A stretch of DNA of 64,000 nucleotides from a virus (taxonomy: Duplodnaviria > Heunggongvirae > Uroviricota > Caudoviricetes). The position numbers and the translations under genes were made by a program. Shown in pieces: positions 350 through 27,599 of the stretch. The stretch is taken from IMG/VR virus record IMGVR_UViG_3300022871_000010; one strand, given 5' to 3'. Each line of letters opens with the position of its first letter. Positions within the stretch are counted from its first letter, which is position 1. A model generated the notes under the pieces. That model saw only the letters and a program-made list of their open reading frames with translations, did not search any database and was not told where the DNA came from.

Positions 350-393
350 TCCCACCACTAAAGATAGTGGGATTGCTTTAGACATTAATTTTC
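350..393. repeat. 44-46 bp element with the hairpin CCCACTAAAGATAGTGGG, in a candidate IS200/IS605 left-end subterminal position (copy 1). It overlaps the last codons of the 378..4604 gene.
   Basis: An exact copy sits in the same transcriptional orientation at about 33955-34010. An internal 6-7 bp stem-loop is visible. Confidence 0.55.
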
Positions 394-3300
394 ATGCTCA
401 TGATGTTTTTTAATTTATTTTTTAATGATAACGATTTAGTTTTAGATACTTTATTTGCTGTGGACTTTTTTAATCCTGTATTAACTACACTAGGGACTTT
501 GTTAGTCATTGGCATTTTAAACCCTTGATTAACTGCTTTAGGTGTTTGCATTGCCATAGCATTTTTCATTGTTCCCATAATGTTTGGTTTAGCTGTAGTT
601 ATTGGGTTTTTATAAGTATCTCTAAAACTATTTCCTGAAGCAATATTTTTTCCGAACAATCTATCGACTGCATTGTTTGCTTTATCATAACTTGATTGTT
701 GTGGTTTTTTTTCAAAAAAAGTTTTTGCATAATTTTGTATTTTGTTATCTACTAACCAACTATCCATATAATTTCCACCATTACCTCGACCATACTTTTT
801 AGGTAAAGATACTTTCCCATAAGGCAAAATCATCGCACTAGAAAATACTCCAGTCATTGTGTTTGTATTTGCAAGAACATTGGTATATGTGTTTGCCTGT
901 GCTTGTGTTTGTGCTTGTGCTTGTGCTTGTGCCTGAGCTTGTGCTTGAGCTTGTGCTTGTGTTTGTGCCTGAGCTTGTGTATTTGGGTTTGCTTGTGCCT
1001 GAGCTTGTGCTTGAGCTTGGGCTTTTGTTTGTTCCTGAGATTGTGTATTGAGTATTTCTTGAATTTTTGTGTCCATAGCAGTCTCTTGTGATTGTTGAGA
1101 TGCCCCTGTATTAAACATATTAATTAAATTTTTATTTGCCGCAAAAGTTTCTTTTGAAGATATATAAGAATTTGTTTTAGATTTAGCTTGTGTGCTGGTT
1201 TGAATTTGTTCTGCAATACTAGCTGTACGAACCTTTGCTGTTTCGGCTTTCATATAAGTTTTCATTTGTGTTAAAGATTTTACATTCGTTGGGCTTGCAT
1301 CAAACGTTTGTATTCCAGTAAAAGTATTTACTTTAATTTTGTTTCCTTCAATTGAAACATCTTTAACATCTGAAACTTCTATAGTATTTGAATCCGTAGA
1401 CCCACCGACAGTGTTCACAAAAGTAAATACTTTAGGTTTCATTCTCATTGTAACTTTAGAAGCTATCCCGGGAATATATTTTTCCATGGCATCACCAATC
1501 TTATCTCCACCTTTTTCAAACCAATCAGTCCAATACCCTGTTTTTTCCAAAATTTTATTTATCTTACCGCCTGCCCCAGATTTCGTCATAGCCCCACCTA
1601 TTAATCCTGATGTCACTGCACCCCATGTTGCGGCACTTACTAAACCACTAGGTGTAACTTCTTTATGAGCTCTATATCTATTAGTTGCATAAACAGCTAT
1701 ACCTTCTGGAACTCCTGCTTTTGCTATTGTGGTGGCACCAGTCCAAAAAGATTTTTCTGGGGCCCCTGCTAATACTGCTCTGGAATAAGTTCCTCTACCT
1801 ATAATTTCTGACGCTGCATTCGCAGAAAATAATGCTCCTACTTCAGCCAATCTTCCTGTCCATCTATCTTTTACAGTAGCACTTACTGCACTGTCTGCTT
1901 CTGCATCTGAATATCCTAAACTTAAATAATAATCTTTTGTACCTTTTGTAAAATCTTTACCTGATGCTGAAACTCCTGGAATCCATCCAGCTACTGGAAG
2001 GTCTCCTAGGAAACTTCTAGCAACTCCATCCCATCCGCCACCAGTTAATTTTCCTTTATCATCATATTTATCATTATAATCAAACCAACCTTTACTTTGT
2101 TCTAAATCTTCTAAAATATCTCCTGCTTGAAAACCCTTATCAAATTGTTCCGGGTTCATTCTAAAGTCTTTTTCTTTATCAGTACTTATACCATAACTTG
2201 TAACTCTTCCGCCTTCCATCCATAATGGTGCCCCGGTCGCATATTTGGCTGCGAAAGTTAATAATGCTGGTGGGGCTGTTGCTGCTACTAGTAATGCTCC
2301 TCCTGCTACAGTTGTAAATTCTGTGGCTTTACGTAAAGGTGTTTTTCCTAAACCATAAAATTCTGCAGTATCTGCGCGTTCACCATAATCTAATGTATAC
2401 GGGGTTTCTTCAACCACTGCTTGCTTTACAGTTTCTGTCCCAAGTTGTCCTATTCCTTGAACTCCTTTAGTTGCCATGCTACCAAATAATTTAACACCTC
2501 TATCTTTTATTAAATTTCCAACATTTAATAAAACCCTTGCAGCATCTCCTTTCTCACTTAAAACATTTTTTGGAACTTCTTTATCTGCAACAACAATTTT
2601 ATCTGACATTAACTGGTCCCATGCTGAAAATACTTTTTTTTCACTTTCCACAACCTTTGAGGCTGCTACAATATCTCCTTTATTTGTTATATCTGCTTCT
2701 CTAATAATTGGTAATGTATAATCAATAAAATCATCTCTAATTTTAGTTTTTTCTTTTTCTGCTTTATTATATTTATCACTTTCTTCTTTAGTAAAATCTA
2801 AATTTTCTACACTTGTACTAAAATCACTCCAAAACTTATTATCTGCTGCGTCTACTTCTTCACCTATTTTTTTATAATATTTTTCGGCCGCATCTACTCC
2901 TTCTTGAGTTCTATAGACAAATTTATTAGTTTTAGTTCCATCGTCACCTACATATGTTTGCATATAACCATCTGCGGTTTGTTGATATTCTGTTATTTTG
3001 TTTTCAACAATTTCTTTTCCTGTTTCATACCTAGACTCAGAACCCATATTTCCGATAAGCATTGCTCCTACTTTTGCAGGTGTAAGCTTTGAAATATCTA
3101 CATCCGAAGGTTTTATAATTGGAGTTGTTGTATCTGCGTTTGATTCTTCCGCTACAGCTTCTTGATATAATCTAGCCCCTTTATCATATGTTACTGGGTT
3201 ATCAATCATATCTCCAACACGTTCATCACCAATCATTGTATTTAATATTTTTTCTGAATTAATTTTTGTATCTTTATCCTGATTTTTTTTTAAATCAAGT

Positions 3301-4604
3301 TGTATATTTAGAGGGGCTTGTGCTAATTCTATACTTCTTTTATCTAATGCTTTTGCGAACCATGCATTTTCTTTATCATCCCCAAAAAATTTATTGTCTA
3401 TTGCTGCATCATGTTCTATTGCTAATGATTGTAAATCAAGTGAACTTGTTCCTGCATTAATTCTAGTTTGCCAATCTTGTTGGTGTGCATATTCTTTAGT
3501 ATCTTTAGCATCTGTTGGTTTTCCAAATATTTTATCTCTCCAGGACTCGGCTTTTTTATATGGTGATATAAGTGAATTAATAGTATTTGTTGCTTTATCT
3601 TGTCTCAACTCTGCGGCTCTTTGTTCAGAAGCTTTTATATCTATAAAGGTTCTATCATTTGGTATTCTTGGCCCAGGCATTATAGCCCCTGTTGGCGCGT
3701 CAGCTGTTGCTAAACGTTCAATAATTGTGTCAGGGATTGTTCCTGTAGGCGTTTCCACTATAAAAGACCCTGGCATAGAAGTTGTATCTTTAGGGGTTGT
3801 TGGATATAATGTTGTGTTTAAAAAATCTTTAGTTGCCACTTTAGTTTTAATTCCTGAATTTTTATTTGTTGGATAACGGTTACTTAAAAAACTTACTGGT
3901 TCTTTTTGAATATATGAACTAACAACTGAAGATGCTATAGCCTGTCTTTGTTTTTCATTAATTGCATTATTTCTATTAGCAACAATGTTCATTCTATCCT
4001 TAGCGCCTTTAGTGTCTATGATGGACATGCTGTTTATAAAGCTTTGTGAATTTTGTTGTATTCTAGGACCAACTTGTGAGGCCATTTTATTTTGCACTGC
4101 CATAGCTTGTTGTAGTTGTTTATTTGATATTATAGCTGCTTGTTGTTTAGCTTTTATTTGTGCTTCTTTAGCCCGTGCTTTATTTTGTAAAGCCACCAAC
4201 TGATTGTTTGTTACTGCATTATGAATTTCATTAGGTGTTGCAATAGTTCTTCCAGAAGAATCAACATAACCAAACTCTCTACTTGAAGTTCCTGCCACGC
4301 CCATATTTATACTATTACTCGATTGAAGATTATTAAAAAAATTCATTGCAGGGTCAAATGATTGTGGAACTGCATTATTAGAAGAAGTTTTTCCAGAAAT
4401 TTTTTTGGCTTTAGCCTGTGCAGCTGCAATCTTTCTCGCCCTAGTGGCATTGTTGTCTCCAGGGTTAATTGTAGTACTGCTACCACGATTACTTGAAGAA
4501 CCTGAACTACTAGATGAAGAACTTGAAGATGCTTTAGCCGTACTCTGTTGCTGATTACTAGTCATTAAACTTCTAAGATAATCAGCATTATTCATAGCTG
4601 TCAT
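378..4604 (-). CDS. Large (1408 aa) low-complexity, coiled-coil, Gly-rich protein. It is possibly tail tape-measure-like or structural; function uncertain.
   Basis: Long ORF with a Ser-rich N-terminus, a (QA)n/(QT)n repeat, and a Gly/Ala/Trp-rich C-terminal half (GGGWDGVARSFLGDLPVAGWIPG). No catalytic motifs were recognised. Confidence 0.35.
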   Translation of the reverse strand: MTAMNNADYLRSLMTSNQQQSTAKASSSSSSSSSGSSSNRGSSTTINPGDNNATRARKIAAAQAKAKKISGKTSSNNAVPQSFDPAMNFFNNLQSSNSINMGVAGTSSREFGYVDSSGRTIATPNEIHNAVTNNQLVALQNKARAKEAQIKAKQQAAIISNKQLQQAMAVQNKMASQVGPRIQQNSQSFINSMSIIDTKGAKDRMNIVANRNNAINEKQRQAIASSVVSSYIQKEPVSFLSNRYPTNKNSGIKTKVATKDFLNTTLYPTTPKDTTSMPGSFIVETPTGTIPDTIIERLATADAPTGAIMPGPRIPNDRTFIDIKASEQRAAELRQDKATNTINSLISPYKKAESWRDKIFGKPTDAKDTKEYAHQQDWQTRINAGTSSLDLQSLAIEHDAAIDNKFFGDDKENAWFAKALDKRSIELAQAPLNIQLDLKKNQDKDTKINSEKILNTMIGDERVGDMIDNPVTYDKGARLYQEAVAEESNADTTTPIIKPSDVDISKLTPAKVGAMLIGNMGSESRYETGKEIVENKITEYQQTADGYMQTYVGDDGTKTNKFVYRTQEGVDAAEKYYKKIGEEVDAADNKFWSDFSTSVENLDFTKEESDKYNKAEKEKTKIRDDFIDYTLPIIREADITNKGDIVAASKVVESEKKVFSAWDQLMSDKIVVADKEVPKNVLSEKGDAARVLLNVGNLIKDRGVKLFGSMATKGVQGIGQLGTETVKQAVVEETPYTLDYGERADTAEFYGLGKTPLRKATEFTTVAGGALLVAATAPPALLTFAAKYATGAPLWMEGGRVTSYGISTDKEKDFRMNPEQFDKGFQAGDILEDLEQSKGWFDYNDKYDDKGKLTGGGWDGVARSFLGDLPVAGWIPGVSASGKDFTKGTKDYYLSLGYSDAEADSAVSATVKDRWTGRLAEVGALFSANAASEIIGRGTYSRAVLAGAPEKSFWTGATTIAKAGVPEGIAVYATNRYRAHKEVTPSGLVSAATWGAVTSGLIGGAMTKSGAGGKINKILEKTGYWTDWFEKGGDKIGDAMEKYIPGIASKVTMRMKPKVFTFVNTVGGSTDSNTIEVSDVKDVSIEGNKIKVNTFTGIQTFDASPTNVKSLTQMKTYMKAETAKVRTASIAEQIQTSTQAKSKTNSYISSKETFAANKNLINMFNTGASQQSQETAMDTKIQEILNTQSQEQTKAQAQAQAQAQANPNTQAQAQTQAQAQAQAQAQAQAQAQTQAQANTYTNVLANTNTMTGVFSSAMILPYGKVSLPKKYGRGNGGNYMDSWLVDNKIQNYAKTFFEKKPQQSSYDKANNAVDRLFGKNIASGNSFRDTYKNPITTAKPNIMGTMKNAMAMQTPKAVNQGFKMPMTNKVPSVVNTGLKKSTANKVSKTKSLSLKNKLKNIMSMKINV
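893..1045. repeat. In-frame imperfect hexanucleotide tandem repeat (gcttgt/gcctga units) encoding (QA)n/(QT)n in the minus-strand ORF.
   Basis: Direct reading of the sequence. The spurious plus-strand ORFs 857..1051 and 903..1091 (LVLV / CLCL) are artefacts of this repeat. Confidence 0.9.
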
Positions 4605-4606
4605 AT

Positions 4607-6061
4607 TTACCAGAACCTCTCGGAAGTAGTTTTACCAGTATCTGGGTTTAAAAATGAATAACCTCTAACTCCATAGTTGTAACGATAATCATCTTTGTAT
4701 ATAGGTTTAGCATTTGGGTCTAACACCATTTCATAAGATGGTGAACTACCATAAGCATTAGTTGGATGGTCTTCACTCAATGTATTTTTAATGTAAGAAT
4801 CTCTATCAAAATTAACTTTTCTAAAAGTATTTCCTTTAGCTGCGCCATAATCTATTTGGCCAATGTTTTTATCACCGACAAAATATTGTTCTGATTTTAA
4901 CTGAGCCTTTTGGTTTATATCTCTAACAACAGTTCTTCCGCCATCACTATAATTACCTTGTTGGGTTCTTTTATAATTAGTTATGAAAGGTGAATAAGTC
5001 TTAACCACAGATGTTGCGTTGTTTGGAGAGTAAACACTTTCTTTTTTCAAATAAGCTTCTCTACGAGTATTCTCAAAATCACTACTGTTTCCTCTAGCAT
5101 AACGATTTTTTTCATAATTAGATTTTGCATAATCACCATACAAACTTTTTTTAAGTAACCCGCCAGTAGCAGCATATTCACTAACCTTATCTAAACGCAC
5201 AGCTCTTTTTTTATCTCTTTTAGTATCATCATCATCTGAATCTTCACGATAATAACTTTCAAAAGTTGTTCTTCCAAGAATTTTTTTTGTTATTCCAGTC
5301 TTGTAATAATCTTTTTCAGAAGATACATAAGGAGTATATTCTTTATCATATCTTTTATATCTATCATCTTTATCAGTATATTCATACAAGTTATTGTTTA
5401 TTCCTCTTTTAACTATTCTAGAAATTTTATTAGTTTCTGGGTTTATATAAACTTCTGCAGGAACATAAGTTTTATTAGTTATTTCTTTTTTAGTCTCTCC
5501 GCCATCTCTTTTATAATAATGCTTTTTAGCTAAATACTCCTGCGTTGGAGCTTTATACACATTACCTGTTTTAATAAAATTATCAGGAATATCTAACTTC
5601 CATCCCTTATTAATTAATTTAGTAGATGTGGGGGCTAAAGAAAAAGTTCCTTTTTGATAATCACTACGTACTGTCAAATTATCGCCTTTCTTTGAAAACC
5701 CAGAAATAAGTTCTGAACCTTTAAGTTTTGTTAAGAAAGTATTTTGTGCTACTGCTATTTGTTTTTTCCCTGCTATACCTGTTAAAGTATCTGGCATGAA
5801 AGACTTCAGACTAATATTTTTTCCTGAATATAGTGAATAATTTAAATTGTCAAACGGAGTTGCTTTGGATAACGTGTTTGCACTATGTTGCATTCTAGCC
5901 ATTTTTGAACTGAAAGAACCAGATTTTGTTGGAGTGTTAGTTTTATAACTTGGAAGCCTAGAAGACGATTTTGAAGCCGAACTACTCTTTCCTCGTTTAC
6001 CTTGATTTTGCATCATTTTGAATACCTCATTAAACATAGCTACTATTGGGCGGCTACTCAT
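4607..6061 (-). CDS. Hypothetical Y/K/D/N-rich protein (484 aa). Its stop abuts the start of the 1408-aa gene, so the two are probably co-transcribed.
   Basis: Long ORF with a 3-nt gap to the downstream gene. Confidence 0.6.
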   Translation of the reverse strand: MSSRPIVAMFNEVFKMMQNQGKRGKSSSASKSSSRLPSYKTNTPTKSGSFSSKMARMQHSANTLSKATPFDNLNYSLYSGKNISLKSFMPDTLTGIAGKKQIAVAQNTFLTKLKGSELISGFSKKGDNLTVRSDYQKGTFSLAPTSTKLINKGWKLDIPDNFIKTGNVYKAPTQEYLAKKHYYKRDGGETKKEITNKTYVPAEVYINPETNKISRIVKRGINNNLYEYTDKDDRYKRYDKEYTPYVSSEKDYYKTGITKKILGRTTFESYYREDSDDDDTKRDKKRAVRLDKVSEYAATGGLLKKSLYGDYAKSNYEKNRYARGNSSDFENTRREAYLKKESVYSPNNATSVVKTYSPFITNYKRTQQGNYSDGGRTVVRDINQKAQLKSEQYFVGDKNIGQIDYGAAKGNTFRKVNFDRDSYIKNTLSEDHPTNAYGSSPSYEMVLDPNAKPIYKDDYRYNYGVRGYSFLNPDTGKTTSERFW

Positions 6062-8386: not shown

Positions 8387-10687
8387 TTATACATCACCCT
8401 GTTCTTCCCTGATTTTCATAATTAATTGTTTTGCATCAGTCATGATTTGTTGCACTTGTTTTTTTGATATAGGAATGTCATACTGGTTCTTTACGTGAAG
8501 AGTAATTCTATTCATAGTCAGTGTCGTGTCATTAACCATAATATCTTGTAATGCAAGTAACAACAAAGACTTGTAAATATCTGTTGAAGAAACTTCACTA
8601 CGAACGACATCTTCATCATACACATTTCTTTCCCTAACCTTCAAGTATTTTGTGTACAACCAATTTGGAACTTTAGGAAATTTTATTATTTTCCAAAAAT
8701 TTGGATGTTTTTTTAGTTTCTTTTCAATCTCAGTTAATGAAGTGAACTCAGTATATGAGCCAACGTTTTTAAAATCTTTAAGTCTCCATGGGTCGTTACT
8801 TGGATTTTTATCTTTAACATAAATTGCGCCAAGACCTCTACCAAATAAATCTATCCAGTAATTTACGAAAGAATTATGAACCAATAGATTATTTGCAACA
8901 TAATTTTTGTTTTTGTTTACATTTAATATATCATAAACATCCACATTTGGTTCTTTATTTATTTGTATTATTGATTCAAACTTATTTGATATTGTAAAAA
9001 TTTTATGATTATGTGTTAATTCATGTAATTGTTTCCATCCATCATTTGTAAAAAAACTATGATTTTTTGTGGCCTTAATTTTATTATTTGTTGTAATAAT
9101 TTCAAAGACTATATCATTTTTTGTTTTTACACAAGCTTCAGCAAATTGATATTCATACTTTTTATTTTTTATATCATAGCTTAATACTTCAATGTTTGAT
9201 TTATTTTCTAAATGTTTTATTTTTTGTAAACCCTGTCTAGTATGTATTAAAGTGTCCCCATGTAAACATTCTAAATAATTTTTTTCTATCTTAACAATTT
9301 TTAATGGAAAACATAAAATAAATAATAAATGTTTTGTTCTAACTTCCGCTAACCGTTTTTTTAATTCTTTAGACTCTTTTTTTGCCCAATCCGCAGAACT
9401 ATTATGTACAACAAAATTATTAGCAATATAATTATTATTATCTTCAACATTAATTATATCATAAACATCTATTTTTTCTTTTTTTGTTATGCTTTTAATT
9501 TTTATAAATTTATTATTAAAACATACTAACATATTTTTATTAATATGTTGCAATTCTTTCCATCCATTATTTGTTAAAAATTTATGTTCTTTAGTGGCTC
9601 TTATAATGTTTTCATTTTCGATTTCTAATTCATATACATAATCTGTTTTTGTTTTAATTATTGTTTTGGCTTTTTTAAATTCTGTTTGTTTATTTTTTAT
9701 ATTATATGATAATACTTTAATATTTTTTTTATTTACTAAAGTGCTTATTTTTTTAGGACCTTCTAAGGTTTGAATAATTGTGTTTCCACAAATACACGCA
9801 AACCTTACCGCTTCATCTGCGATTATTGGTTCGAACGCATTTAATTTATTAATTTTATCCATAACGTCTTTATTGTTATAGGCTAAATGTCTATTGGGGT
9901 CAAATCTTATTCCAATTAATTTACACCATTCTCTAGCTAACATTATTGAGGCAGACGATTTTCCAGTATTTGAAACAACAAACCCGTTAGCTATAAAATT
10001 ATGATTATCTCTAACATTAACTACATCATAAACATTTTGTTTTCCTAAATGTTTTATTGATTTTATTATATTATTTATTATTTTTTTATTATTATCAACT
10101 GTCACAATTTTTTTAGTTTTATCATTTATTTTCAAATCTTTTAATTCTTTATATGTTCCGTCCATTAATAAAAACGGATGGTCTGCAGTGGCCTTTATAA
10201 TTTGACCAGTTATTAATTCTAATTCATATACATCATCATACTTAGCAAACTCTACACCGTCAGAATCTTTTATTTCTAATTTTTTAGTATCCTTATTAAA
10301 TGAATAAACTTTTATTGGACCTTTATTTATTAGTTCTTTTAATGGAACTCCAACCGGATATTTTGTTAAATCTCTAGGCATCATCAATAAAGAATCATCT
10401 GTCAAACATCCTTTCTCAGAAGTCATTAGTACCATACTATCGTAGTTGGCTAAATTTCTATAAAGTAAATGTTTTGCAAACATTCTAAATATGTTGAAAC
10501 CTCTGTTGTTTGGTTTTTCTCCTTCAACATATTTTTTACCTTCTTCATTGTGCATTTCTTGAATTATAAATAGAATATCATTTAACCCAAGCTTGACACT
10601 ACTTGGATTGTCTGTCTTAAAAGATTCTTTAATTATGTTTTCTACTAATCTCCTAGTACCAAAACCTAACTCTTTTGCGTCAGCCAT
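8387..10687 (-). CDS. AAA+/P-loop ATPase interrupted by three mini-inteins. The extein is about 355 aa and is Orc1/Cdc6-like or packaging-ATPase-like.
   Basis: The spliced extein reads SEKG|TGKSSASIML (Walker A), then about 50 aa later EPIIADEAVRFA (Walker B). Three inserts each start with Cys and end in (H/S)N followed by Ser or Thr. Confidence 0.7.
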   Translation of the reverse strand: MADAKELGFGTRRLVENIIKESFKTDNPSSVKLGLNDILFIIQEMHNEEGKKYVEGEKPNNRGFNIFRMFAKHLLYRNLANYDSMVLMTSEKGCLTDDSLLMMPRDLTKYPVGVPLKELINKGPIKVYSFNKDTKKLEIKDSDGVEFAKYDDVYELELITGQIIKATADHPFLLMDGTYKELKDLKINDKTKKIVTVDNNKKIINNIIKSIKHLGKQNVYDVVNVRDNHNFIANGFVVSNTGKSSASIMLAREWCKLIGIRFDPNRHLAYNNKDVMDKINKLNAFEPIIADEAVRFACICGNTIIQTLEGPKKISTLVNKKNIKVLSYNIKNKQTEFKKAKTIIKTKTDYVYELEIENENIIRATKEHKFLTNNGWKELQHINKNMLVCFNNKFIKIKSITKKEKIDVYDIINVEDNNNYIANNFVVHNSSADWAKKESKELKKRLAEVRTKHLLFILCFPLKIVKIEKNYLECLHGDTLIHTRQGLQKIKHLENKSNIEVLSYDIKNKKYEYQFAEACVKTKNDIVFEIITTNNKIKATKNHSFFTNDGWKQLHELTHNHKIFTISNKFESIIQINKEPNVDVYDILNVNKNKNYVANNLLVHNSFVNYWIDLFGRGLGAIYVKDKNPSNDPWRLKDFKNVGSYTEFTSLTEIEKKLKKHPNFWKIIKFPKVPNWLYTKYLKVRERNVYDEDVVRSEVSSTDIYKSLLLLALQDIMVNDTTLTMNRITLHVKNQYDIPISKKQVQQIMTDAKQLIMKIREEQGDV
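8873..9268 (-). mobile_element. Mini-intein 3 (aa 474-605, 132 aa).
   Basis: Starts CLHGDTLIHT. Ends KNYVANNLLVHN|S. It is paralogous to intein 2: both have EVLSY / KATK(E/N)H / VYDI(I/L)NV. Confidence 0.8.
9401..9796 (-). mobile_element. Mini-intein 2 (aa 298-429, 132 aa), inserted just after Walker B.
   Basis: Starts CICGNTIIQT. Ends NNYIANNFVVHN|S. Confidence 0.8.
9968..10408 (-). mobile_element. Mini-intein 1 (aa 94-240, 147 aa), inserted inside the P-loop between G and TGKS.
   Basis: Starts CLTDDSLLMM. Contains the block-B-like TADHPFLL. Ends DNHNFIANGFVVSN|T. Confidence 0.8.
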
Positions 10688-10694
10688 TTAAGGA

Positions 10695-11090
10695 TTATTT
10701 ATTTCCTGGTTTTAATTTTAATAACGCTGTTATTTCATTACTATATTTTGATAGCTCTGCTTGTATTGCATCATTGATTACGTTGGCTTTTGTTTTATCT
10801 GTTATTGCCGCTAGTGCTGATATCTTTTCTTTCATTCCAAGTCTTAAATGAAACCCATAAAATGTTTTTTCTTTAACTTGAACTACTGGTTCTTCAACTG
10901 CAGCCATTATTTTTTCAGCTACTTGTATTTTAATTGGTGGCTCAACTACTTCAAAATCAAAATTTGTTTCTGTTTCGGTAAGAGGTTCTTCGTCTTTATT
11001 TACTTGTTCTACAATAGATTCTTGTTCTAGCTTTAGTTCTTGCATTGGTGTTTCTATTTCTTCAATTTGGTTGTTTTCTTGTTCTGTCAT
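10695..11090 (-). CDS. Acidic protein with a C-terminal ribbon-helix-helix (CopG/ParG/Arc-like) DNA-binding domain.
   Basis: C-terminus KEKTFYGFHLRLGMKEKISALAAITDKTKANVINDAIQAEL fits the RHH beta-alpha-alpha pattern. The N-terminus is E/Q-rich. Confidence 0.45.
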   Translation of the reverse strand: MTEQENNQIEEIETPMQELKLEQESIVEQVNKDEEPLTETETNFDFEVVEPPIKIQVAEKIMAAVEEPVVQVKEKTFYGFHLRLGMKEKISALAAITDKTKANVINDAIQAELSKYSNEITALLKLKPGNK

Positions 11091-11160: not shown

Positions 11161-12393
11161 CTATAAACATTTTAACTCTTTATACTCTTGTGCCATTAAT
11201 TGTAAAAACTTCTTTCTACTGTCTGCGTTTGCTGATTCAATAGTATCCTCACAGTATATTTGATATATACGGCTTACACTATCTTCTTTCTTTCTTAGCG
11301 TTCTTCCCATACGTTGAATGGTTTGTTTCTGTGAAGATTCTCCCGCCATTATTATTGCTAAATCTATTTTTGGTAAATTGTATCCTTCATCTAAAACTTT
11401 ACTAGCCAGCAATATGTTATACTTGTCATTTTTGTAATCCATCAAATTTTTTTCTCTAACTGCATCTGATATTCCACTATGTATGATTCTACAATTAATA
11501 CCCAAATCTAGTAGATGCCAGTATAGTTTTGATGTCTGTGAATTATATTGATTAAACACTATGATTTTTTTATGCTTATATTTATTTATTATCTTTTTTG
11601 CCACTATAAATTTTTTATAGAAATTGTTTACTAACTGTTTTCTTGCATTTAACATTGCTAAATATTTTGGTTTGGTTGGTGTCTTCAACATCATTATTTG
11701 TTTATGACCTCCATGTATTTTCATCAGCGATGATATTTGATGTGTTACTCTGTCATATTCTATTTTTGTTTTATCATCCAGGTTTACTGAAATGCTTGTG
11801 AATATAAATGGATTTAATATGTCATCATCTAATGCTTGCTTTAAATCATATTTAAACACGTTGTAATCAAATATTTTCATAAGGTCATAATGTTTATCAT
11901 CCAAACGCTTTAGAGTGGCTGTGAGTCCTAATTTGTATTTAAACTTATGTTCTAATACTTCCAATAATCTTTCAGATGCAAAATTATGGACCTCGTCCAC
12001 AATTAACATATCAAATATTTCTAAAGGTAACTTGGTTATTGATTGCATATTGGTTAATGTAATTTTTGTTATTTCTTTAATCTTCCCATAAAATACTCCT
12101 ACGTCTTGAATCTTTAATCCTTGGTCTATCAACTCTTTATACCATCCTGTTTCTAGAATAACATTTTTTGGTACCACCACTAAAATTTTAATATCTGGAT
12201 GTTTTTTAATTATTGATTTTATTATATCAACTGCTATCAAGGTTTTACCACTACCTGTGGCTACTTCAAAAATGGCGTTGTTATGTTTTAAAAAATATTT
12301 TTTTGATTCAGTTTGCCATTTATGCAGTTCTTTTTTATTCTTTTTGAGATTTTTTATTTTCTCTTCTAATTCGTCTATGTCTGTATCTTCCAT
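11161..12393 (-). CDS. Superfamily-2 DEAD/DEAH-type helicase (410 aa).
   Basis: Motif I ATGSGKT, motif II IVDEVHNF, motif III LGLTATL, and motifs V/VI LLASKVLDEGYNLP...QRMGRTLR. Confidence 0.8.
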   Translation of the reverse strand: MEDTDIDELEEKIKNLKKNKKELHKWQTESKKYFLKHNNAIFEVATGSGKTLIAVDIIKSIIKKHPDIKILVVVPKNVILETGWYKELIDQGLKIQDVGVFYGKIKEITKITLTNMQSITKLPLEIFDMLIVDEVHNFASERLLEVLEHKFKYKLGLTATLKRLDDKHYDLMKIFDYNVFKYDLKQALDDDILNPFIFTSISVNLDDKTKIEYDRVTHQISSLMKIHGGHKQIMMLKTPTKPKYLAMLNARKQLVNNFYKKFIVAKKIINKYKHKKIIVFNQYNSQTSKLYWHLLDLGINCRIIHSGISDAVREKNLMDYKNDKYNILLASKVLDEGYNLPKIDLAIIMAGESSQKQTIQRMGRTLRKKEDSVSRIYQIYCEDTIESANADSRKKFLQLMAQEYKELKCL

Positions 12394-14539: not shown

Positions 14540-16738
14540 ATGACTCCGACTAATTTTCAGATATTAACTCCCAGTCAAATAAATATATTATCTTCACATG
14601 ATTTAATTAATAAACAAATAGATAAAGTTTTTAATAGAATCTTTAATGCTTCATCAAAAAAATTAGCCAGTATATTATTAACAGGTGATTATATTGATAT
14701 TAACATTTTATCATTCAAACCTAATTATGAAGCATTCATTAAACGAAATTCTGGATTATTTAATTCAATGGAATCAAATGGTACAACAATTTATTTATTA
14801 AATAATGATGTAGCTAAAAATTTACATACAGAATTATTAAAAACTTTACAAAAGATAGGTACAGCCATTGTAGATGCAGATGAAGATGATTCTGAAAAAT
14901 GGACTAAAAAACAAATTAATGGTCAAGAGTTTTATGAAGTTAATGAAGCAACAACTTTTCAAGATATAAGACAAATTCTTGGTAAGGAAGGAAAAAATAT
15001 AAATTTTCGTTATCCATTTAGAAAAGCTGATATGAAAGCAGCAGTGTTTGAGAATAAGAATACTCTACAAATGGTTAATGTACACATTAATAATGATGGT
15101 GAATATTTTGGTTACCCAGTAACTTATACATATATATGTCCTGAGTGTAGAGAAATCTTTACATGCCCGGAATATGAAACGAGTTCTAAGCAGGCTAATA
15201 AGATGGCTTGCACTGGAGAAGTAACTACTATAGATAGTCATAATGTAGAAAAATTAAAGAGATGTAATAATAGTTTAATTCCGGATAATAATAGGACTGA
15301 AACTAAAGACTCATTTATTTATGATGTATCATTCATTAATGAAGATGGTAATAATCAAAAGGCTGAAGCTATATCATTCATTCAATTACCCAAAGGAAAC
15401 ATCCGTGTAGTATTACAAAAGATACCTAGGGCTTTCGGAATACAATTAGTTCACATTGTAGATTATGAAGAAATAGAAAAGAAATCTTTAGAACTACCTC
15501 CAAGAAAATCTAAACATTATATGTTTGATTTAATAAAAGCTATAGATGATTATATTTTAAAAATAACCAATTATAAACATTATGGGTTTTTATCAATGAA
15601 GATGTCTATGCTATTACAATTTTTTGCTAGATATAATAGGGATATAAAAAATAATTATAACATGGCATTATCCGGGACTATGTCTTCAGGTAAATCTCAG
15701 TTCTCTAGATATTGGGGACTAACTTTATATTCACAAAGTTGTTGGAGCAGCAATGCAACAAGTATTAGTATACCAAAACTTCGTGGAACAATGGAATCAT
15801 TTCATTTGTTTGGTAAAGATTATCGTTATCAATATAAAGGTTTATTTGGAGAAAAAGATTTAATCATAATTGATGAAGTTAAAGAAGCCCCTGATGTAAA
15901 AAACAATTTGAAGCAGTATGCTTTAGAACCAACTTATGAATATTCCAAACAAGGAAGTAATAATCAAACTTATGAAAGAACCGCTCAATTAATAATTACG
16001 CAAAACATCGATACAAAACATTTGGATAGATATGCTAAGGCTGTACAGAAAATTTATATGTCCGACTCTTTAGTGGTTGATGATGAAAGCGTTGGGCCTA
16101 AACCAGCCTGGGGGTTTTCTGAAGATTTAACTCTGCCATTGTATGCTTATGCAAATCCTTATTTACAGTATGCAGTTCAAAAGGCCAGAGATGAATATGA
16201 AAGAAGTCAAATCAATTGGATTGATGGTTCTGAACTTGCACTGAAACAAAGGTTTTTCTTTTATTTTTATTTAAGTTCTGAAGAAAGCAATCATGAATTA
16301 AAAACAGTAATCCAGGAAAACAGTGTTAACAAAATTATATCAAACAACACAAACATTGTTAAATTAATGAATTGTGATAAGTTAGTTAAGTATGTTAAAG
16401 ACCAGGAACACTTGTTTGAAAATTATAATGATATAAAATATTTTAACAAAGTTGATGATATTTTAAAAACTTATAAGAAACGAAATGACGCAAGGACCAA
16501 AGAAATGGCTTACATGATAATTAAAATGTTAAGAATGATTGATGGGCGTAAAGAATGTAATGATACAGATTTAGAAATTTTTACTTACATTATAGAAAAC
16601 ATAGATAACAAAATAGAAATTATTAACACAAATAATTTTGTCATTAAAGGAGCGCACTCAGTGGTTTTAAAAGTAGATGAAAGAAACGCTGAAGATGACG
16701 AATGGGAAAACAATAACAATAAAGGAAACTTTTTTTAG
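14540..16738 (+). CDS. AAA+ replicative-helicase candidate (MCM-like or SF3/D5-like) with an N-terminal Cys-cluster zinc module (732 aa).
   Basis: Zn module ICPECREIFTCPEY...MACTGE...KRCNN. Walker A LSGTMSSGKSQF (MCM-type GKSQ). Walker B LFGEKDLIIIDEVKEA about 60 aa later. Sensor-1 / motif-C-like TAQLIITQN. Confidence 0.5.
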   Translation: MTPTNFQILTPSQINILSSHDLINKQIDKVFNRIFNASSKKLASILLTGDYIDINILSFKPNYEAFIKRNSGLFNSMESNGTTIYLLNNDVAKNLHTELLKTLQKIGTAIVDADEDDSEKWTKKQINGQEFYEVNEATTFQDIRQILGKEGKNINFRYPFRKADMKAAVFENKNTLQMVNVHINNDGEYFGYPVTYTYICPECREIFTCPEYETSSKQANKMACTGEVTTIDSHNVEKLKRCNNSLIPDNNRTETKDSFIYDVSFINEDGNNQKAEAISFIQLPKGNIRVVLQKIPRAFGIQLVHIVDYEEIEKKSLELPPRKSKHYMFDLIKAIDDYILKITNYKHYGFLSMKMSMLLQFFARYNRDIKNNYNMALSGTMSSGKSQFSRYWGLTLYSQSCWSSNATSISIPKLRGTMESFHLFGKDYRYQYKGLFGEKDLIIIDEVKEAPDVKNNLKQYALEPTYEYSKQGSNNQTYERTAQLIITQNIDTKHLDRYAKAVQKIYMSDSLVVDDESVGPKPAWGFSEDLTLPLYAYANPYLQYAVQKARDEYERSQINWIDGSELALKQRFFFYFYLSSEESNHELKTVIQENSVNKIISNNTNIVKLMNCDKLVKYVKDQEHLFENYNDIKYFNKVDDILKTYKKRNDARTKEMAYMIIKMLRMIDGRKECNDTDLEIFTYIIENIDNKIEIINTNNFVIKGAHSVVLKVDERNAEDDEWENNNNKGNFF

Positions 16739-17612: not shown

Positions 17613-17899
17613 ATAAGACTAAGAGTGTAAAGTTCCAACGACTCGGGAAATATAACTGCAGAGTGCTTTCATTAAATGGGGCAATCTTTGGTTTAATAAA
17701 AAAGAGTAAAGTTGGCATATACTTTTATTGGGTATTCATTCCTGCAAATGTAAAGACCTTCGGGGACTTATGTTTTACAACAAGAAAAATTAGGGAAATC
17801 CACGACAAAGTTGTGGAGTGCCAAAAAAATAATAATGTAGTTATTGACGAACCAAACGAGTATGAATATTATCTTAAAGAAAAAAACGGTGAAATATAA
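17609..17899 (+). CDS. Hypothetical protein (96 aa).
   Basis: ORF with a 4-nt overlap to the upstream gene. Confidence 0.45.
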   Translation: MNKTKSVKFQRLGKYNCRVLSLNGAIFGLIKKSKVGIYFYWVFIPANVKTFGDLCFTTRKIREIHDKVVECQKNNNVVIDEPNEYEYYLKEKNGEI

Positions 17900-17900
17900 A

Positions 17901-19475
17901 ATGAAATGGTATGAATATAATAATATAGAAAGAAAAAAAGAAGTGTATGATAAACATACTACTGCGGACTTCTGGGACTGGTGGTCTGGTGGGGAACCTG
18001 CAGTTATGGAAGTTAGAATTATGAAGGATTATAAAGAAATTAAAAAATTTGCCCAATCAGTTAAATTACCTTTTTCGGCTAGTGGAGTTTATGTTAAGTC
18101 CGCTTATGAATTATCTTTTGTTATTAATAAATTTAAAGACACCCACACTATTTGGTTTGGTGCAAATCCTAAAAGACAAATTATAAGTCCTAGAGGATGG
18201 AAGACTTTTTCCGGGAAAGATATTGGTATAGATAAAATTAAATATTTGTTTATAGATATTGATAGAGTTACAAAAGAAGGTGCTGCATCGACTAAAGATT
18301 TGTTGAGTGCAGATTTTTTGGCTGAAAAGGTATTGGAAGAATTACACAAAAATAAGTTTGCCGAAAAATATTGTAAAATTTGTTCCGCTAACGGATTACA
18401 ATTATTAATAGAACTTGATGAACCAATAGTAATGCCCCCACTAGTATTAAATGATAAAGGAAAATATGAACCATCGCCTATTTTTGAACAGTACAAAAAG
18501 GTAATAAAAAATGGTATAGGTAAAGTGTTATGTAAATTTTCAAAAAAATTCAATGATGAATATAATGTAGAGATTGATTCAACAGGATTTAATATGGGAA
18601 GAGTTATGGCCTTACCTGGAAGCTTTAATTTTAAGCATGGTCTAAAAGTTCCTAGAGGACTTATTGAATTACGTGATGGAAAAAATAAAGGTTTTTCCGA
18701 TTACTTAATGGAGTTATTTAAATCAAAAAAAATTAAAACAAAAGTGCAGGACCAATACAACAATAAATCCGCTGAAGTAATGCTTAAAGAATATAACTTA
18801 GATATAACTAAAGCCAAACAAAACATTATAGTTAATTTAATGATGGATTATGAATTTCCAGACGGAGGAATAAATAATACTTTATGGTATGCACTAAAAA
18901 TATTATTGCACAACCAAGGAATTTGTAGAGACACAGAACACTATAATGAATTGCACAATATATTAAAAATAAAGCACGACAGAGCATTTCCGGATAATGG
19001 TTTAGAAACAGAATACTTAAATAATTATGATGGAACTTTCAAGAAGAACCATATTGATATGGTTCCAACCATAGTAAACAAATATCTTAGGTGCCACAAA
19101 ATAGTTAGGGATTCAGATAAAAAGGAACTATATTTAAAACCAATATTTCCAGTATCCCCTAATGGTAAAAGTAAAGCAAAAATACAAATACCTATAGACC
19201 CTAAATTGTTCAAGTATGATAAGACTGAAGCTTATGAATTAACAGAAGACACTAATGACTTTTTGTTTGATGTAAAAAAGTTAGGTAAAGAATTATTGTA
19301 TAGAGAATTATCAATACAACAAGCATCCACTATAGAAATGATTTTTTCTTCAAACACGGAGAGACAGATTGTTATAAACTTTTTACACAGTTTCAGAAGT
19401 AAGTGGGGGGACCACACAACAATTTATATGATGAAATATTATTTAGATGATTTTATCAATTACAAAAGATGGTGA
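17901..19475 (+). CDS. Archaeo-eukaryotic primase (AEP/PrimPol-like) domain protein. The start is revised to the internal ATG at 17901, which follows the SD ggtga.
   Basis: Motif I YLFIDIDRV (DxD). Motif II SANGLQLLIELDEP (sGnGlHh). Motif III NMGRVMALPGSFNFKHG (R..GS.N.K.G). Confidence 0.55.
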   Translation: MKWYEYNNIERKKEVYDKHTTADFWDWWSGGEPAVMEVRIMKDYKEIKKFAQSVKLPFSASGVYVKSAYELSFVINKFKDTHTIWFGANPKRQIISPRGWKTFSGKDIGIDKIKYLFIDIDRVTKEGAASTKDLLSADFLAEKVLEELHKNKFAEKYCKICSANGLQLLIELDEPIVMPPLVLNDKGKYEPSPIFEQYKKVIKNGIGKVLCKFSKKFNDEYNVEIDSTGFNMGRVMALPGSFNFKHGLKVPRGLIELRDGKNKGFSDYLMELFKSKKIKTKVQDQYNNKSAEVMLKEYNLDITKAKQNIIVNLMMDYEFPDGGINNTLWYALKILLHNQGICRDTEHYNELHNILKIKHDRAFPDNGLETEYLNNYDGTFKKNHIDMVPTIVNKYLRCHKIVRDSDKKELYLKPIFPVSPNGKSKAKIQIPIDPKLFKYDKTEAYELTEDTNDFLFDVKKLGKELLYRELSIQQASTIEMIFSSNTERQIVINFLHSFRSKWGDHTTIYMMKYYLDDFINYKRW

Positions 19476-20501: not shown

Positions 20502-23500
20502 ATGTTAGATATAAAAAAATTAATCAAAAATAAAACCAACAGGGTAAACTTTGGTGGTCCTCTTTCTAAAAATTTAAACAAATTTAATCTAAAGGCTTTC
20601 GGTGGAAAGAAAGATTTAGATTTTGATGGAATACTTAACAAGTTTGATTGTAAACCAAAAAACACTATGAGACAAGATTATATTCCTTTCAAGCTGGCTA
20701 GTGCTTCTAAACTACCCCAAGTGCCTAGACATAAACAACATTTTCAAACAAGGTTTGAAAAGAACAAGGCACCTAAAAGAAAAATTTCTAAAACAAAATA
20801 TACACCCCCTGTTTCATTAATTAAAGAATTTTCTATGAATCCAACAGTTAAACGTGGGTCTTTAAATATTGGGCGTTGTGGGGATGCAGCTTCATGCATT
20901 GTTACAGACGCAGTAAATAGTGGAGTTCCAATGTCGGACATTGAAGTGTTTGGTGTAAGAGCACCTAATCTTAATAAAGGCGAAGATATTTATTCTAATC
21001 ATATGATAACTAAAGTTCAAGATAAATATTATGACCCAACCAAAACACAGTTCGGATATAAAGATAATGAACTAATAACTGATTCTATAGATTCAAGATA
21101 TAATACTCCAGTAATACAACCGACAAGTGCATATGTTAAAAAAGGGGCTTCATTAAAAAAACAAGATGAATGGGCTTATATGACAGGAGCACAAAAAGAT
21201 ATAGAACGGGCTGTATATATAGATACTGATGGGGATAGAGTCCCGGATGATTATGATTGTCAAATTAATAATACCATGCGCCAAGATTTCACACCATTCA
21301 AATGGGATGTAAATAAAGCTTCAAAACTTTCTGCAGCTAAAAGATTTGGTGGAAAGAACTTGGCAAAATTACAAAAGATAGGTTCCGGTAGAGATAGAAA
21401 TGTTTATGCTATAGATAAAGATAAAGTATTAAAGGTTGCTAAAAATCCTGGTGGGCTAACTCAAAATACTTCTGAATCAGATTTAGATTGGTTAACAGGC
21501 CAAATCAAACATTATGAAACTGGATTGGATTATGTAGTTATGGAACGAGCACAACCTCCAGGTAAAGCTACGGCTAAAATGATGAGACATTTGAAGAAAG
21601 CAAGAAGCGATACTAATATGATGCAGTCAGTTCATTCACAAAGAGCAGACTTTTTTAATTCTCCACACTTCGAAAAATCAGGTTTAGACGCTTCAGATTT
21701 TTCAAGCCATGATGTAAACCCAATGGAATTTACGGCAAGAAAACAGTGGGGAGAAAAAGATGGTCAGCCAGTACTTGTTGATGGAGGAGCATTAATGGGT
21801 GGTGATGATTTATCAAATCATAGAATTAAAGATTTTAAACAAAACGCTTGGCAACTTAATGAATGGCAAGATACTCAAAATCAACGTAAAGAATTTAAAC
21901 ATAAAGGTAATGTAAAAACCCACTATCCTAAAAGTAATCCAGTAGAAAACTTATCAAACTTCCCATTAAACAATGGTGCTTCTTTAGCTAAACAAAATGA
22001 ATGGAAAGAAATGTCTGGGGAACAAAGAGATGCTCAAAGACAAACCAGCCATGACACAGATGGAGATAGAGTCCCGGATGAATATGATTGTCAACCAGAA
22101 AATACAATGCATCAAGATACTAATATATATTTAAGTAAACGTAAAGATAAGACTAAACATTCTATGTATACATATAGTCCTACAAAAAATCAGATAAAAA
22201 AAAATACTAAAAACATATTTATTGGGTCAGAATATAAGAATGTTGATTTTAACAAACAACAAAATATAAATCAGTTGTCAGCAATATTAGGGCATGAAGA
22301 ACAACACAGTATTTTGGATGTAGAACATAATAGTGATACTTCCGCAAAGTTAGATAATATAGCCATTAAAACACTTTTTGTTGATTATGACGATGAAACA
22401 TTATTGTTAAACACATCTGTGCAACCAAAAGAAATTGTTGGTTATGCAAATAAAAATAAACATTGCGATGATTCAAAAAATGCTTTTAAATTTATCTTTA
22501 ATAAAGGTGCGTCATTACAAAAACAAAACGAGTGGAAAGAAATGTCTGGAGAACAACGAAACATTGTTAGACAATTCAAAGAAGACATAGACGGGGATAG
22601 AGTCCCGGATGATTATGATTGTCAACCAGAAAATACAATGCATCAAGATTTCAGTATATCCCCAGACCAGTATGATTTTGATAAAAAAGAATTTAAGTTT
22701 GATAATAAACGAAAAGTAGTTATGATGCCGGTTGAAGAATTATATCATAAACGTGGTAAATATAATTTAGGTGGAACAACCACGATGCAGGATGATTATA
22801 CCAAACGTAAAACGGTGGGCAAGAATATCACAAAAGCCGCCGGGAGACCTGCAACATATGATGAAGTAACAAAACATATGATTAAAAATCGTAATGAAGA
22901 TTTAAAACAACAAGGATATAAACCTTCACCACACAAATTAAATAAAGATGATAGTGTAACAATTAAGTATCGAAGGTCTCCACAAAAATATAAGTATGAC
23001 ATGGGAATAATAATGAGCCCAACAAATACTGATTCTGAACGGAGTGGAAGTCTTGGGGATTTAAAAATAGCCCAAGGAGCAAGTCGTAAAGAAGCAGGAC
23101 AGGCAGAAGTAATGTTTCACGCTAACAGTATGAGAGATGCAGTGATGAAAGATTCTGCAGAAGTCCCAATGATAACAGTTCATGGTTCAGATTTTAACCC
23201 AGGAGCAACTATAGGGGAAGGGAGACATAGAATCATTGCCGCTAAAGCCGCAGGATTAACAGAGGTCCCAGTGTTTATTGAACCAAATAATAGATTACCT
23301 GAAGGGGCTTTAGATAAGTATAGAGAATTATCTACTGATGAAATACAACAATTTTCTTCAGACCATAGAGTTCCAGGAAAAACCGTTAACACTAATAAAC
23401 CTAAAAACATAGAATATAAAGAATATGATAAGAGTTCTAAATTTAAACCAACTAAAGATTTTGATGTAGGCTATGATGAGTATGTAGATAAACGAACCCC

Positions 23501-23570
23501 TGAAGAAAAAGAAGAAGAAGACGAACTTAGATTAGCAAATTTAACCTATGAAATTTTAGGACACTATTAA
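20502..23570 (+). CDS. Giant multidomain protein (1022 aa). It carries at least four thrombospondin-type-3-like Ca-binding repeats, a eukaryotic-like protein-kinase-like domain, and a C-terminal ParB/Srx-like nuclease domain.
   Basis: Four copies of DTDGDRVPDDYDCQPENTM(H/R)QD. Kinase-like G-loop IGSGRDRNVYAI, VLKVAK lysine, YVVMER hinge, catalytic loop SSHDVNPMEF, VDGGALMG in place of DFG. ParB-like HGSDFNPGATIGEGRHRIIAAKAAGLTEVPVFIEP. Confidence 0.55.
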   Translation: MLDIKKLIKNKTNRVNFGGPLSKNLNKFNLKAFGGKKDLDFDGILNKFDCKPKNTMRQDYIPFKLASASKLPQVPRHKQHFQTRFEKNKAPKRKISKTKYTPPVSLIKEFSMNPTVKRGSLNIGRCGDAASCIVTDAVNSGVPMSDIEVFGVRAPNLNKGEDIYSNHMITKVQDKYYDPTKTQFGYKDNELITDSIDSRYNTPVIQPTSAYVKKGASLKKQDEWAYMTGAQKDIERAVYIDTDGDRVPDDYDCQINNTMRQDFTPFKWDVNKASKLSAAKRFGGKNLAKLQKIGSGRDRNVYAIDKDKVLKVAKNPGGLTQNTSESDLDWLTGQIKHYETGLDYVVMERAQPPGKATAKMMRHLKKARSDTNMMQSVHSQRADFFNSPHFEKSGLDASDFSSHDVNPMEFTARKQWGEKDGQPVLVDGGALMGGDDLSNHRIKDFKQNAWQLNEWQDTQNQRKEFKHKGNVKTHYPKSNPVENLSNFPLNNGASLAKQNEWKEMSGEQRDAQRQTSHDTDGDRVPDEYDCQPENTMHQDTNIYLSKRKDKTKHSMYTYSPTKNQIKKNTKNIFIGSEYKNVDFNKQQNINQLSAILGHEEQHSILDVEHNSDTSAKLDNIAIKTLFVDYDDETLLLNTSVQPKEIVGYANKNKHCDDSKNAFKFIFNKGASLQKQNEWKEMSGEQRNIVRQFKEDIDGDRVPDDYDCQPENTMHQDFSISPDQYDFDKKEFKFDNKRKVVMMPVEELYHKRGKYNLGGTTTMQDDYTKRKTVGKNITKAAGRPATYDEVTKHMIKNRNEDLKQQGYKPSPHKLNKDDSVTIKYRRSPQKYKYDMGIIMSPTNTDSERSGSLGDLKIAQGASRKEAGQAEVMFHANSMRDAVMKDSAEVPMITVHGSDFNPGATIGEGRHRIIAAKAAGLTEVPVFIEPNNRLPEGALDKYRELSTDEIQQFSSDHRVPGKTVNTNKPKNIEYKEYDKSSKFKPTKDFDVGYDEYVDKRTPEEKEEEDELRLANLTYEILGHY

Positions 23571-27149: not shown

Positions 27150-27222
27150 GGGCTCGTAGCATAACGGCTAATGCAGTCGCCTTGCAAGCGAAAGACTTTG
27201 GGTTCAAATCCCAACGGGTCCA
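27150..27222 (+). tRNA. tRNA-Ala (anticodon TGC).
   Basis: Cloverleaf read by hand: acceptor GGGCTCG/CGGGTCC with the G3:U70 Ala identity pair, D-arm GCAT/ATGC, anticodon loop CTTGCAA, T-arm TTGGG-TTCAAAT-CCCAA. No encoded CCA. Confidence 0.8.
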
Positions 27223-27509
27223 TTCATACCAGAAACAAAGACAGAACAATATAGCTAACATACGATGTTGTAAGGAAAACCAGGTACTCTGGCAACCTAT
27301 ATCTGTAGTCGCAACAGACTATCCTGCCAGGGGTAAATGAAATACAAGTAACGATGAGATTAGTAAATAATGAAAACTTTAAATGAACCTTTTTGGAATG
27401 TTTAATGTTGAGTAATTGTTTAAAATTGTTTGAGTCACTCAACTGGTTTCAAGGTTTATTGCTCTTTGCTGGATAAAGGTAGTTTCCGCCTAAAAGGGAA
27501 CATTCAATT

Positions 27510-27598: not shown

Positions 27599-27599
27599 T

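Follow-up and report, generated by a model that had tools for sequence, protein, structure and literature searches.

The minus-strand gene at positions 8387..10687 of IMG/VR virus record IMGVR_UViG_3300022871_000010 (Caudoviricetes; the 64,000-nucleotide (nt) stretch of DNA analyzed here is referred to as the window) most probably encodes the precursor of an ATPase of roughly 355 amino acids (aa) that belongs to the additional-strand catalytic E (ASCE) type and is interrupted by three class-1 mini-inteins at conserved positions close to the active site. The source appears to be an uncultured large double-stranded DNA phage with a low content of G and C (GC). The probability of this reading is estimated at about 0.88.

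Three inteins in a P-loop ATPase precursor

The precursor open reading frame (ORF) starts with ATG and runs, stop codon included, through the whole 8387..10687 interval (-) as a single unbroken frame of 766 aa. The first extein segment (aa 1-93, 93 aa; 10409..10687) ends with MTSEKG, the first half of the Walker A motif, and is followed by intein 1 (aa 94-240, 147 aa; 9968..10408), which lies inside the P-loop (G|TGKS) at site 93 of the extein numbering used for the entire family. The second segment (aa 241-297, 57 aa; 9797..9967) contains the second half of Walker A, TGKS (9956-9967), and the Walker B motif, PIIADE (9812-9829), and ends with AVRFA. Intein 2 (aa 298-429, 132 aa; 9401..9796; site 150, RFA|SS) is inserted 5 residues past the Walker B glutamate (DEAVRFA|SS). 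The third segment (aa 430-473, 44 aa, SSADW...KNYLE; 9269..9400) separates it from intein 3 (aa 474-605, 132 aa; 8873..9268; site 194, YLE|SF), the insertion point of which is 44 residues beyond that of intein 2. The fourth segment (aa 606-766, 161 aa, plus the stop codon; 8387..8872) comprises what remains of the ATPase core, together with a helical domain at the C-terminus; all these segments are on the minus strand. The original prediction, made from the sequence alone, had proposed inserts of 147, 132 and 132 aa with exactly these boundaries, an extein of about 355 aa, a first intein splitting the P-loop, a second one immediately after Walker B and a third one about 45 aa further on. All of this is borne out: excision at the proposed coordinates reproduces each insert and yields a spliced extein of exactly 355 aa, with the first junction reading SEKG|TGKS.

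A search started with the spliced 355-aa sequence identifies 403 homologues, most of them 350-357 aa long and free of inteins, which align with the query end to end (97-100% coverage, 60-69% identity). It is therefore the spliced protein, and not the contiguous 766-aa sequence, that matches uninterrupted proteins. In an alignment of 88 sequences, the spliced product and 87 intein-free homologues, the 8 residues before and after each of the three junctions are free of gaps throughout, and the rejoined sequences SEKG|TGKS, VRFA|SSADW and NYLE|SFVNYW read as they do in the uninterrupted proteins. Because the spliced product aligns seamlessly with the intein-free homologues, the insert boundaries can be considered exact. 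The same 766-aa product, without a single difference, is predicted from 12 contigs (e.g., ENA ERZ27316076, 81.6 kb; JGI 3300022868, 49.8 kb; and Logan SRR7527650; the longest contig in the cluster listing is 87.6 kb), so that this allele is no artefact of assembly.

When scanned alone, each insert is recognized by the Pfam profile PF14890, Intein_splicing, with scores of 51.4, 57.6 and 46.9 bits for inteins 1, 2 and 3, respectively, all above the gathering score of 35.8 bits. A phmmer comparison with inteins of solved structure (Npu DnaE, 2keq/4kl5; the DnaB mini-inteins 4o1r/1mi8; Spl DnaX, 7cfv; and gp41-1, 6qaz) gives expectation values (E) of 1e-9 to 1e-11. Intein blocks A, B, F and G, for which the original prediction had recommended a search, are present in all three inserts. 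Block A starts with CLTDDS, CICGNT and CLHGDT in inteins 1, 2 and 3; block B contains TADH, TKEH and TKNH, respectively, aligned with the TxxH motif of related inteins; and the F/G region ends in ...VVSN, ...VVHN and ...LLVHN. The junctions, G|C...SN|T, A|C...HN|S and E|C...HN|S, agree with the predicted pattern of an initial Cys and a terminal (H/S)N followed by Ser or Thr: all three inteins end in Asn, preceded by His in inteins 2 and 3 and by Ser in intein 1, and the +1 residues are Thr241, Ser430 and Ser606. Across the ATPase family, 106 inteins were extracted by selecting for a Cys or Ser start and an Asn or Gln end. Every one of them has Cys at position 1, and the residue at +1, on which no selection was made, is Thr, Ser or Cys in all 106, the +1 nucleophile being invariant at each site. 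A profile scan detects no endonuclease domain in any of the three inteins (147, 132 and 132 aa), in agreement with their earlier description as mini-inteins. By these motifs and profile matches, the inserts are genuine class-1 mini-inteins of the DnaB/DnaE type, and splicing of all three is predicted.

The host ATPase

The extein carries a Walker A motif, GxxGxGK[ST], and a Walker B motif, hhhhDE, on an ASCE core, and an AlphaFold model built from an alignment of 66 homologues is of high confidence, with a mean predicted local distance difference test score (pLDDT) of 86.9. The Walker A (G93, G95, K96, S97) and Walker B (D144, E145) residues are invariant in these 66 homologues, and each of the 41 invariant residues of the family is retained in the window extein. 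None of the Pfam and NCBIfam profiles matches the extein family at threshold, and NCBIfam yields nothing useful. Below threshold, nSTAND3 (PF20720) is matched by 57 of the 66 members, the superfamily 3 (SF3)-type RNA_helicase profile (PF00910) by 12, VapE (PF05272) by 6 and Pfam AAA by 3 (best E = 0.0057). A profile search of the PDB with the extein family returns only a non-significant VapE-like match (E = 0.12), and PHROG 5484, "DnaA-like replication initiation protein", is weakly similar (E = 4.8e-5) over the ATPase core. No match was found among 50,697 GenBank phage records, either with the extein (tblastn) or with 25 kb of the window (megablast). Thus, the extein is an ASCE/AAA+-like P-loop ATPase that belongs to no curated family.

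The original prediction described the gene as an AAA+-like ATPase, probably of the replication-initiator or packaging kind. The AAA+-like Walker motifs are indeed present, but the assignment to initiator or packaging families is not supported. For DnaA or Orc1/Cdc6, the only signal is the PHROG match, with no Pfam or NCBIfam counterpart, and the structures of Orc2 and Cdc6 score no higher than other ASCE folds. A test for membership in the RFC family was also negative. A packaging ATPase of the TerL or A32/FtsK-HerA type is not indicated, given that no terminase or A32 profile matches; B204 of STIV2 and A32-like proteins occur only among the generic P-loop matches to the extein. The genes that adjoin the ATPase gene are replication genes rather than morphogenesis genes. 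A partition pair consisting of a ParA-type ATPase with a deviant Walker A motif and a ribbon-helix-helix (RHH) protein was considered as well; the P-loop of the extein, however, reads xxKGxGKS, not KGGxxGK[ST].

A role in DNA replication or in DNA binding is the best available guess, with somewhat less than even odds. This suggestion is based on the weak "DnaA-like" PHROG match and the weak SF3 helicase, VapE and nSTAND3 matches, together with the helical C-terminal domain and the genomic context, namely, a neighboring superfamily 2 (SF2) helicase and a region that encodes a family-B DNA polymerase (PolB) and a clamp loader.

Predicted splicing and alternatives to it

Under established intein chemistry, each intein would fold after translation into a HINT domain and excise itself from the precursor. 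Cys1 would undergo an N-S acyl shift, the +1 Thr or Ser would attack the resulting thioester (trans-esterification), cyclization of the terminal Asn would free the intein, and an O-N shift would restore a normal peptide bond. The Walker A motif (SEKG-TGKS) and the region past Walker B would be rebuilt only upon splicing, and accordingly, catalytic activity is expected of the spliced product but not of the precursor. The three site-specific lineages circulate among related phages. Homologous recombination or co-conversion probably accounts for both the persistence and the movement of these endonuclease-less inteins, perhaps with the help of HNH or LAGLIDADG inteins that occupy neighboring sites in other alleles.

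Several points weigh against the reading of the gene as a precursor of an active ATPase with three functional inteins. Intein 1 lacks the penultimate His. None of the three inteins contains an endonuclease, so that the mechanism of their mobility is deduced indirectly. The GC content of inteins 1, 2 and 3 (0.24, 0.18 and 0.22, respectively, vs 0.31 for the extein DNA of the same gene) could mean relaxed constraint. The fold matches of the extein do not separate AAA+, RecA, FtsK/HerA, VirB4 and SF3 proteins, and its function is judged from the weak PHROG 5484 match and sub-threshold Pfam and NCBIfam matches. With respect to the first of these points, a penultimate His is usual in inteins but not obligatory, and inteins without it can splice. 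The Ser-Asn ending noticed at the outset in intein 1 is shared by 52 of the 56 site-93 inteins and is thus a stable trait of this lineage, more in keeping with function than with decay.

The missing endonucleases, the AT-rich intein DNA and the lack of the penultimate His in intein 1 would also be expected if the inserts were decayed, non-splicing Hint remnants within a 766-aa protein that is inactive, as a pseudogene-like allele, or tolerates extra domains. This is very improbable: unspliced inserts in the P-loop and beside Walker B would abolish ATP binding, yet the extein is strongly conserved, with the full set of 41 invariant residues and 92% identity to the allele of a sister locus described below. 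Furthermore, no catalytic position is disrupted in any of the three inteins, the inteins shared between the two strains are 98-99% conserved, and the contigs with the same allele come from at least three sources. An artefact of assembly or gene calling, be it a chimeric contig or a set of toxin-type or bacterial intein-like (BIL) Hint domains as the PT-HINT match of intein 3 (18.5 bits, below threshold) might suggest, can be dismissed because the ORF recurs unchanged on a dozen contigs in one uninterrupted frame, its junctions are seamless against intein-free homologues and followed by the +1 nucleophile, and Hint domains of the BIL and toxin types do not occur as in-frame inserts in conserved hosts, with the extein precisely restored.

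Insertion sites across the ATPase family

Inserts in other members of the family were identified by a whole-precursor search and mapped on the extein by global pairwise alignment with a near-zero gap-extension penalty. This procedure reveals at least seven insertion sites (93, 96, 142, 150, 151, 194 and 200) within about 107 codons. Besides the P-loop site 93 (G|[TS]GKS), site 150 (RFA|SS) and site 194 (YLE|S), these are site 96 (GK|S), which is occupied by LAGLIDADG inteins (LAGLIDADG_3, PF14528), site 142 within Walker B (hhhh|CDE), site 151 and site 200 (NYW|CD). Individual alleles hold one to four inteins; for example, P0121 contains inteins at sites 93, 96, 142 and 194, P0122 at 93, 142 and 194, and P0124 and P0125 at 93, 142 and 200. 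Of the 56 site-93 inteins, 25 exceed 260 aa in length, and an HNH endonuclease (PF13392) is present in those of the 25 that were examined. Intein 1 of the window is a deletion derivative of this type, with a short linker left where its relatives carry the HNH domain. A second type of intein at site 150 contains an HNH domain or an insert of HNH size, and its N-terminus, as judged by eye, resembles those of the site-93 inteins.

In two loci of relatives, L007 (3001-5176; JGI 3300007635) and L009 (175-2446; ENA ERZ18628513), naturally split inteins divide the ATPase gene into two ORFs at site 200 or 142. In the first ORF, the N-extein is accompanied by an N-terminal intein part (IntN) of about 100 aa, by a Zn-ribbon and, at the C-terminus, by the HNH motif WHxDH...NLQPLW. 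The second ORF begins 11-20 nt ahead of the stop codon of the first one and encodes a C-terminal intein part (IntC) of 35-38 aa (...VYDI.GV.DNHNF.AN..VVHN), after which comes the C-extein (CDLFGR... or CDESV...). This HNH motif forms the end of at least 12 proteins, and a partial intein is located at the end of more than 20 of the 27 that were examined. The arrangement is reminiscent of the "fractured genes" (Dassa et al. 2009, PMC2677866), but in L007 and L009, the nuclease is fused to IntN instead of being free-standing.

The phage group appears to be generally intein-rich. The SF2/XPB-like helicase encoded next to the ATPase carries an intein in L004 (5980-8292; NCBI SDBV01001144.1, from the Loki's Castle sediment assembly; PMC6401483) as well as in P0199 and P0235; the window copy of the helicase gene (11161-12393) is intein-free.

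Origin of inteins 2 and 3

Inteins 2 and 3 share 50-51% identity at the protein level and 66% at the DNA level. Intein 1 is 99% identical to the site-93 intein of P0121; the nearest relative of intein 2 is the site-150 intein of P0123 (62%), other site-150 inteins being 53-55% identical; and the nearest relatives of intein 3 are the site-194 inteins of P0121 (98%) and P0122 (54%). In neighbor-joining trees (about 139 alignment columns), a clade of site-93 inteins is recovered in 198 of 200 bootstrap replicates. To judge from these similarities, each of the three window inteins is a member of its own site-specific lineage (93, 150 and 194). An exhaustive HMMER scan of 1.84 billion representative sequences, from a library clustered at 50% whole-protein identity, with a profile of inteins 2 and 3 gives 3,913 matches. 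Among the best 150 of these, no intein of another host (terminase, ribonucleotide reductase (RNR), Pol III alpha or SF2 helicase) exceeds 40% identity, compared with 46-62% identity to inteins 2 and 3 for the inteins at the non-P-loop sites of the ATPase family. No match came from a homologous-protein search in which a profile of just these two sequences was used.

A scenario with slightly less than an even chance is that a single lineage colonized sites 142, 150, 194 and 200 in turn, long ago, so that inteins 2 and 3 would be ancient paralogs. The gap between the identity values within the family and those for other hosts is compatible with this scenario, as is the mixed clade of site-150 and site-194 inteins in the neighbor-joining tree. 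That clade, however, is recovered in only 54 of the 200 replicates, on an alignment of this short length, and closer inteins of other hosts could be hidden by the clustering of the library and the restriction to the best 150 matches. Moreover, the second type of site-150 intein, with its site-93-like N-terminus, implies several independent invasions.

The original prediction had suggested intragenic duplication or transposition as the source of the resemblance between inteins 2 and 3. A recent event of this kind, in which one of the two would have been copied from the other within this gene, might be suspected from their equal length (132 aa) and the identity of about one half, from a 6-residue deletion after block A and an N(N/K)NY variant of block F that they have in common, and from the DNA repeats, which are in register with a 528-bp spacing. 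It is nevertheless rejected as very unlikely because closer relatives of both inteins are found at the same sites elsewhere and the two group as sisters in a mere 5 of the 200 bootstrap replicates. The DNA identity of just 66% and the presence in P0121 of a site-194 intein without a site-150 intein are also difficult to reconcile with a recent duplication.

Evidence of ongoing intein turnover between closely related strains

An allele with a different set of inteins comes from a sister locus of the same phage lineage, L006 (613-4206; ENA ERZ27315837), in which the gene order is the same as in the window and the flanks are 96.6-96.8% identical. L006 carries inteins at sites 93, 96, 142 and 194, compared with 93, 150 and 194 in the window, and has no site-150 intein. 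Its site-96 intein (425 aa) is of the LAGLIDADG type and lies three residues past the site-93 intein; the site-142 intein consists of 138 aa. The nucleotide identity between the two alleles varies sharply along the gene: 93.5% in extein 1-93, 99.1% in the site-93 intein, 79.0% in extein 97-142, 75% in extein 143-150, 80.3% in extein 151-194, 98.0% in the site-194 intein and 96.3% in the C-extein. Thus, the central extein is 79% identical vs 95% for the outer extein (Fisher p = 4e-14), and the shared inteins (98.6%) are more similar than the outer extein (p = 1e-4). At extein position 143, the window allele has Ala, and site-142 inteins require a +1 Cys at this position. The mosaic of high and low identity is what would be left by recombination or by homing-associated co-conversion from different donors.

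Combined with the distribution of sites in the family, these observations could fit into one picture, the chances of which are put at a little under one half. A largely family-specific clade of inteins would have spread over at least seven sites in about 107 codons; mini-inteins would apparently have been exchanged between 97%-identical strains by co-conversion of an extein tract of roughly 300 bp; and the same sites in relatives would have given rise to natural split inteins, in which the N-intein is joined in frame to an HNH domain and an overlapping ORF supplies a C-intein of 35-38 aa. If so, the three-intein allele of the window would be one snapshot of rapid intein turnover, and very small inteins that splice in cis or in trans and are compatible with one another would be obtainable from this family.

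Comparison with known inteins

Genes with several inteins are familiar, e.g., RFC of Methanocaldococcus jannaschii with three and RIR1 of Trichodesmium with four. Inteins in the P-loop have been documented in DnaB (site b), MCM (site a) and RFC-S (site a), and just after Walker B in Pol III gamma (site a), and several clustered sites within one ATPase are known from MCM (a-e) and RFC-S (a-d) (Novikova et al. 2016, PMC4760082). The window gene resembles these replication ATPases in that Walker A is split, a second intein lies right past Walker B and the sites cluster in the ATPase core; it differs in the host, an uncurated phage ATPase family with at least seven sites in about 107 codons, and in the prevalence of mini-inteins of 128-155 aa in this family. 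Among archaea, PolB of Haloquadratum walsbyi contains three inteins and haloarchaeal MCM has four neighboring sites, and whether mini-inteins co-home with their neighbors is an open question (PMC10643990). The same question applies to the ORF described here, which similarly contains several inteins, in this case three, at nearby sites. The archaeal multi-intein genes, however, mostly keep endonucleases, whereas the three window inteins have none, the host is viral, and close phage strains differ in the sites that are occupied, with relatives reaching four inteins (P0121).

The solved class-1 mini-inteins (4o1r, 1mi8, 2keq/4kl5, 7cfv and 6qaz) share with the window inteins Cys1, the TxxH motif, an F/G ending of the ...VVHN type and a length of about 130-150 aa, and their sequence similarity, with the E values given above, extends over the whole splicing domain. 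The relationship is distant, and the differences include Ser in place of the penultimate His in the intein 1 lineage and +1 Thr or Ser compared with Cys or Ser. The mycobacteriophage inteins described by Kelley et al. (2016, PMC5050341) are likewise phage-borne and reside in nucleotide-binding proteins, but the host protein is a different one, as is the phage lineage, which is uncultured in the present case.

Thus, P-loop inteins and multi-intein genes were already known, and the current understanding of inteins is unchanged by these findings; what distinguishes the present case is the host family, the density of sites and the polymorphism at the strain level. For annotation, the 766-aa ORF is to be treated as a 355-aa ATPase plus three inteins. 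Near-identical phages that differ in intein content and in a diverged extein tract provide data for testing whether mini-inteins hitch-hike on the endonucleases of their neighbors. Candidates for protein engineering are the inteins of 128-133 aa that have Ser or Thr at +1, along with the split C-inteins of 35-38 aa in the relatives.

Gene neighborhood and other features of the window

The ATPase gene is preceded by a gene for a 131-aa protein with an acidic N-terminal half (10695..11090, -), which ends 8 nt upstream of the ATPase start, and by an SF2 helicase gene (ResIII/Helicase_C, XPB-like; 11161..12393, -) in the same orientation. The order helicase, small gene, ATPase recurs in relatives. 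The C-terminus of the 131-aa protein looks RHH-like (FHLRLGMKEKISALAAITDKTKANVINDAIQAEL), and in L007, the same position is occupied by a 59-aa gene with a weak RHH_3 match. A scan for promoters and terminators around the ATPase gene finds 47 sites vs 37.8 +/- 6.3 expected, i.e., background.

The window also encodes a PD-(D/E)XK-helicase fusion, a clamp loader that is 30-34% identical to those of cultured phages (Caulobacter Cr30, Agrobacterium Atu_ph04 and Vibrio phages) and the family-B DNA polymerase. The latter (39221-43021, +; 1266 aa) carries two further inteins, which brings the total for the window to five inteins in two genes. One of these, of 404 aa (40406-41617, +), is inserted in motif B (KIIIN|C...GQ|TSYG), ends with Gln rather than Asn and contains no recognizable endonuclease domain. 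The other, of 178 aa (41765-42298, +), starts with Ser and is inserted in motif C (YTD|S...VHN|TDS). Removal of both leaves a PolB of 684 aa with intact DYNSLYPS, KIIINTSYG and YTDTDS motifs; its N-extein has no match in the GenBank phage records.

Next to a tRNA-Ala gene (27150-27222) lies another tRNA-like gene, about 90 nt long (27509-27599, +; Rfam tRNA, 39.7 bits), for which ARAGORN gives an odd anticodon of two bases and names no amino acid; this may be a tRNA with a long variable arm or an intron. Five large ORFs have neither a Pfam match above threshold nor a PHROG match, namely, those of 1408 aa (378-4604, -), 484 aa (4607-6061, -), 732 aa (14540-16738, +), 543 aa (17844-19475, +) and 1022 aa (20502-23570, +). 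An ORF of 1340-1505 aa is found at the same relative position downstream of the ATPase gene in distant relatives (L004 and the P0193 locus).

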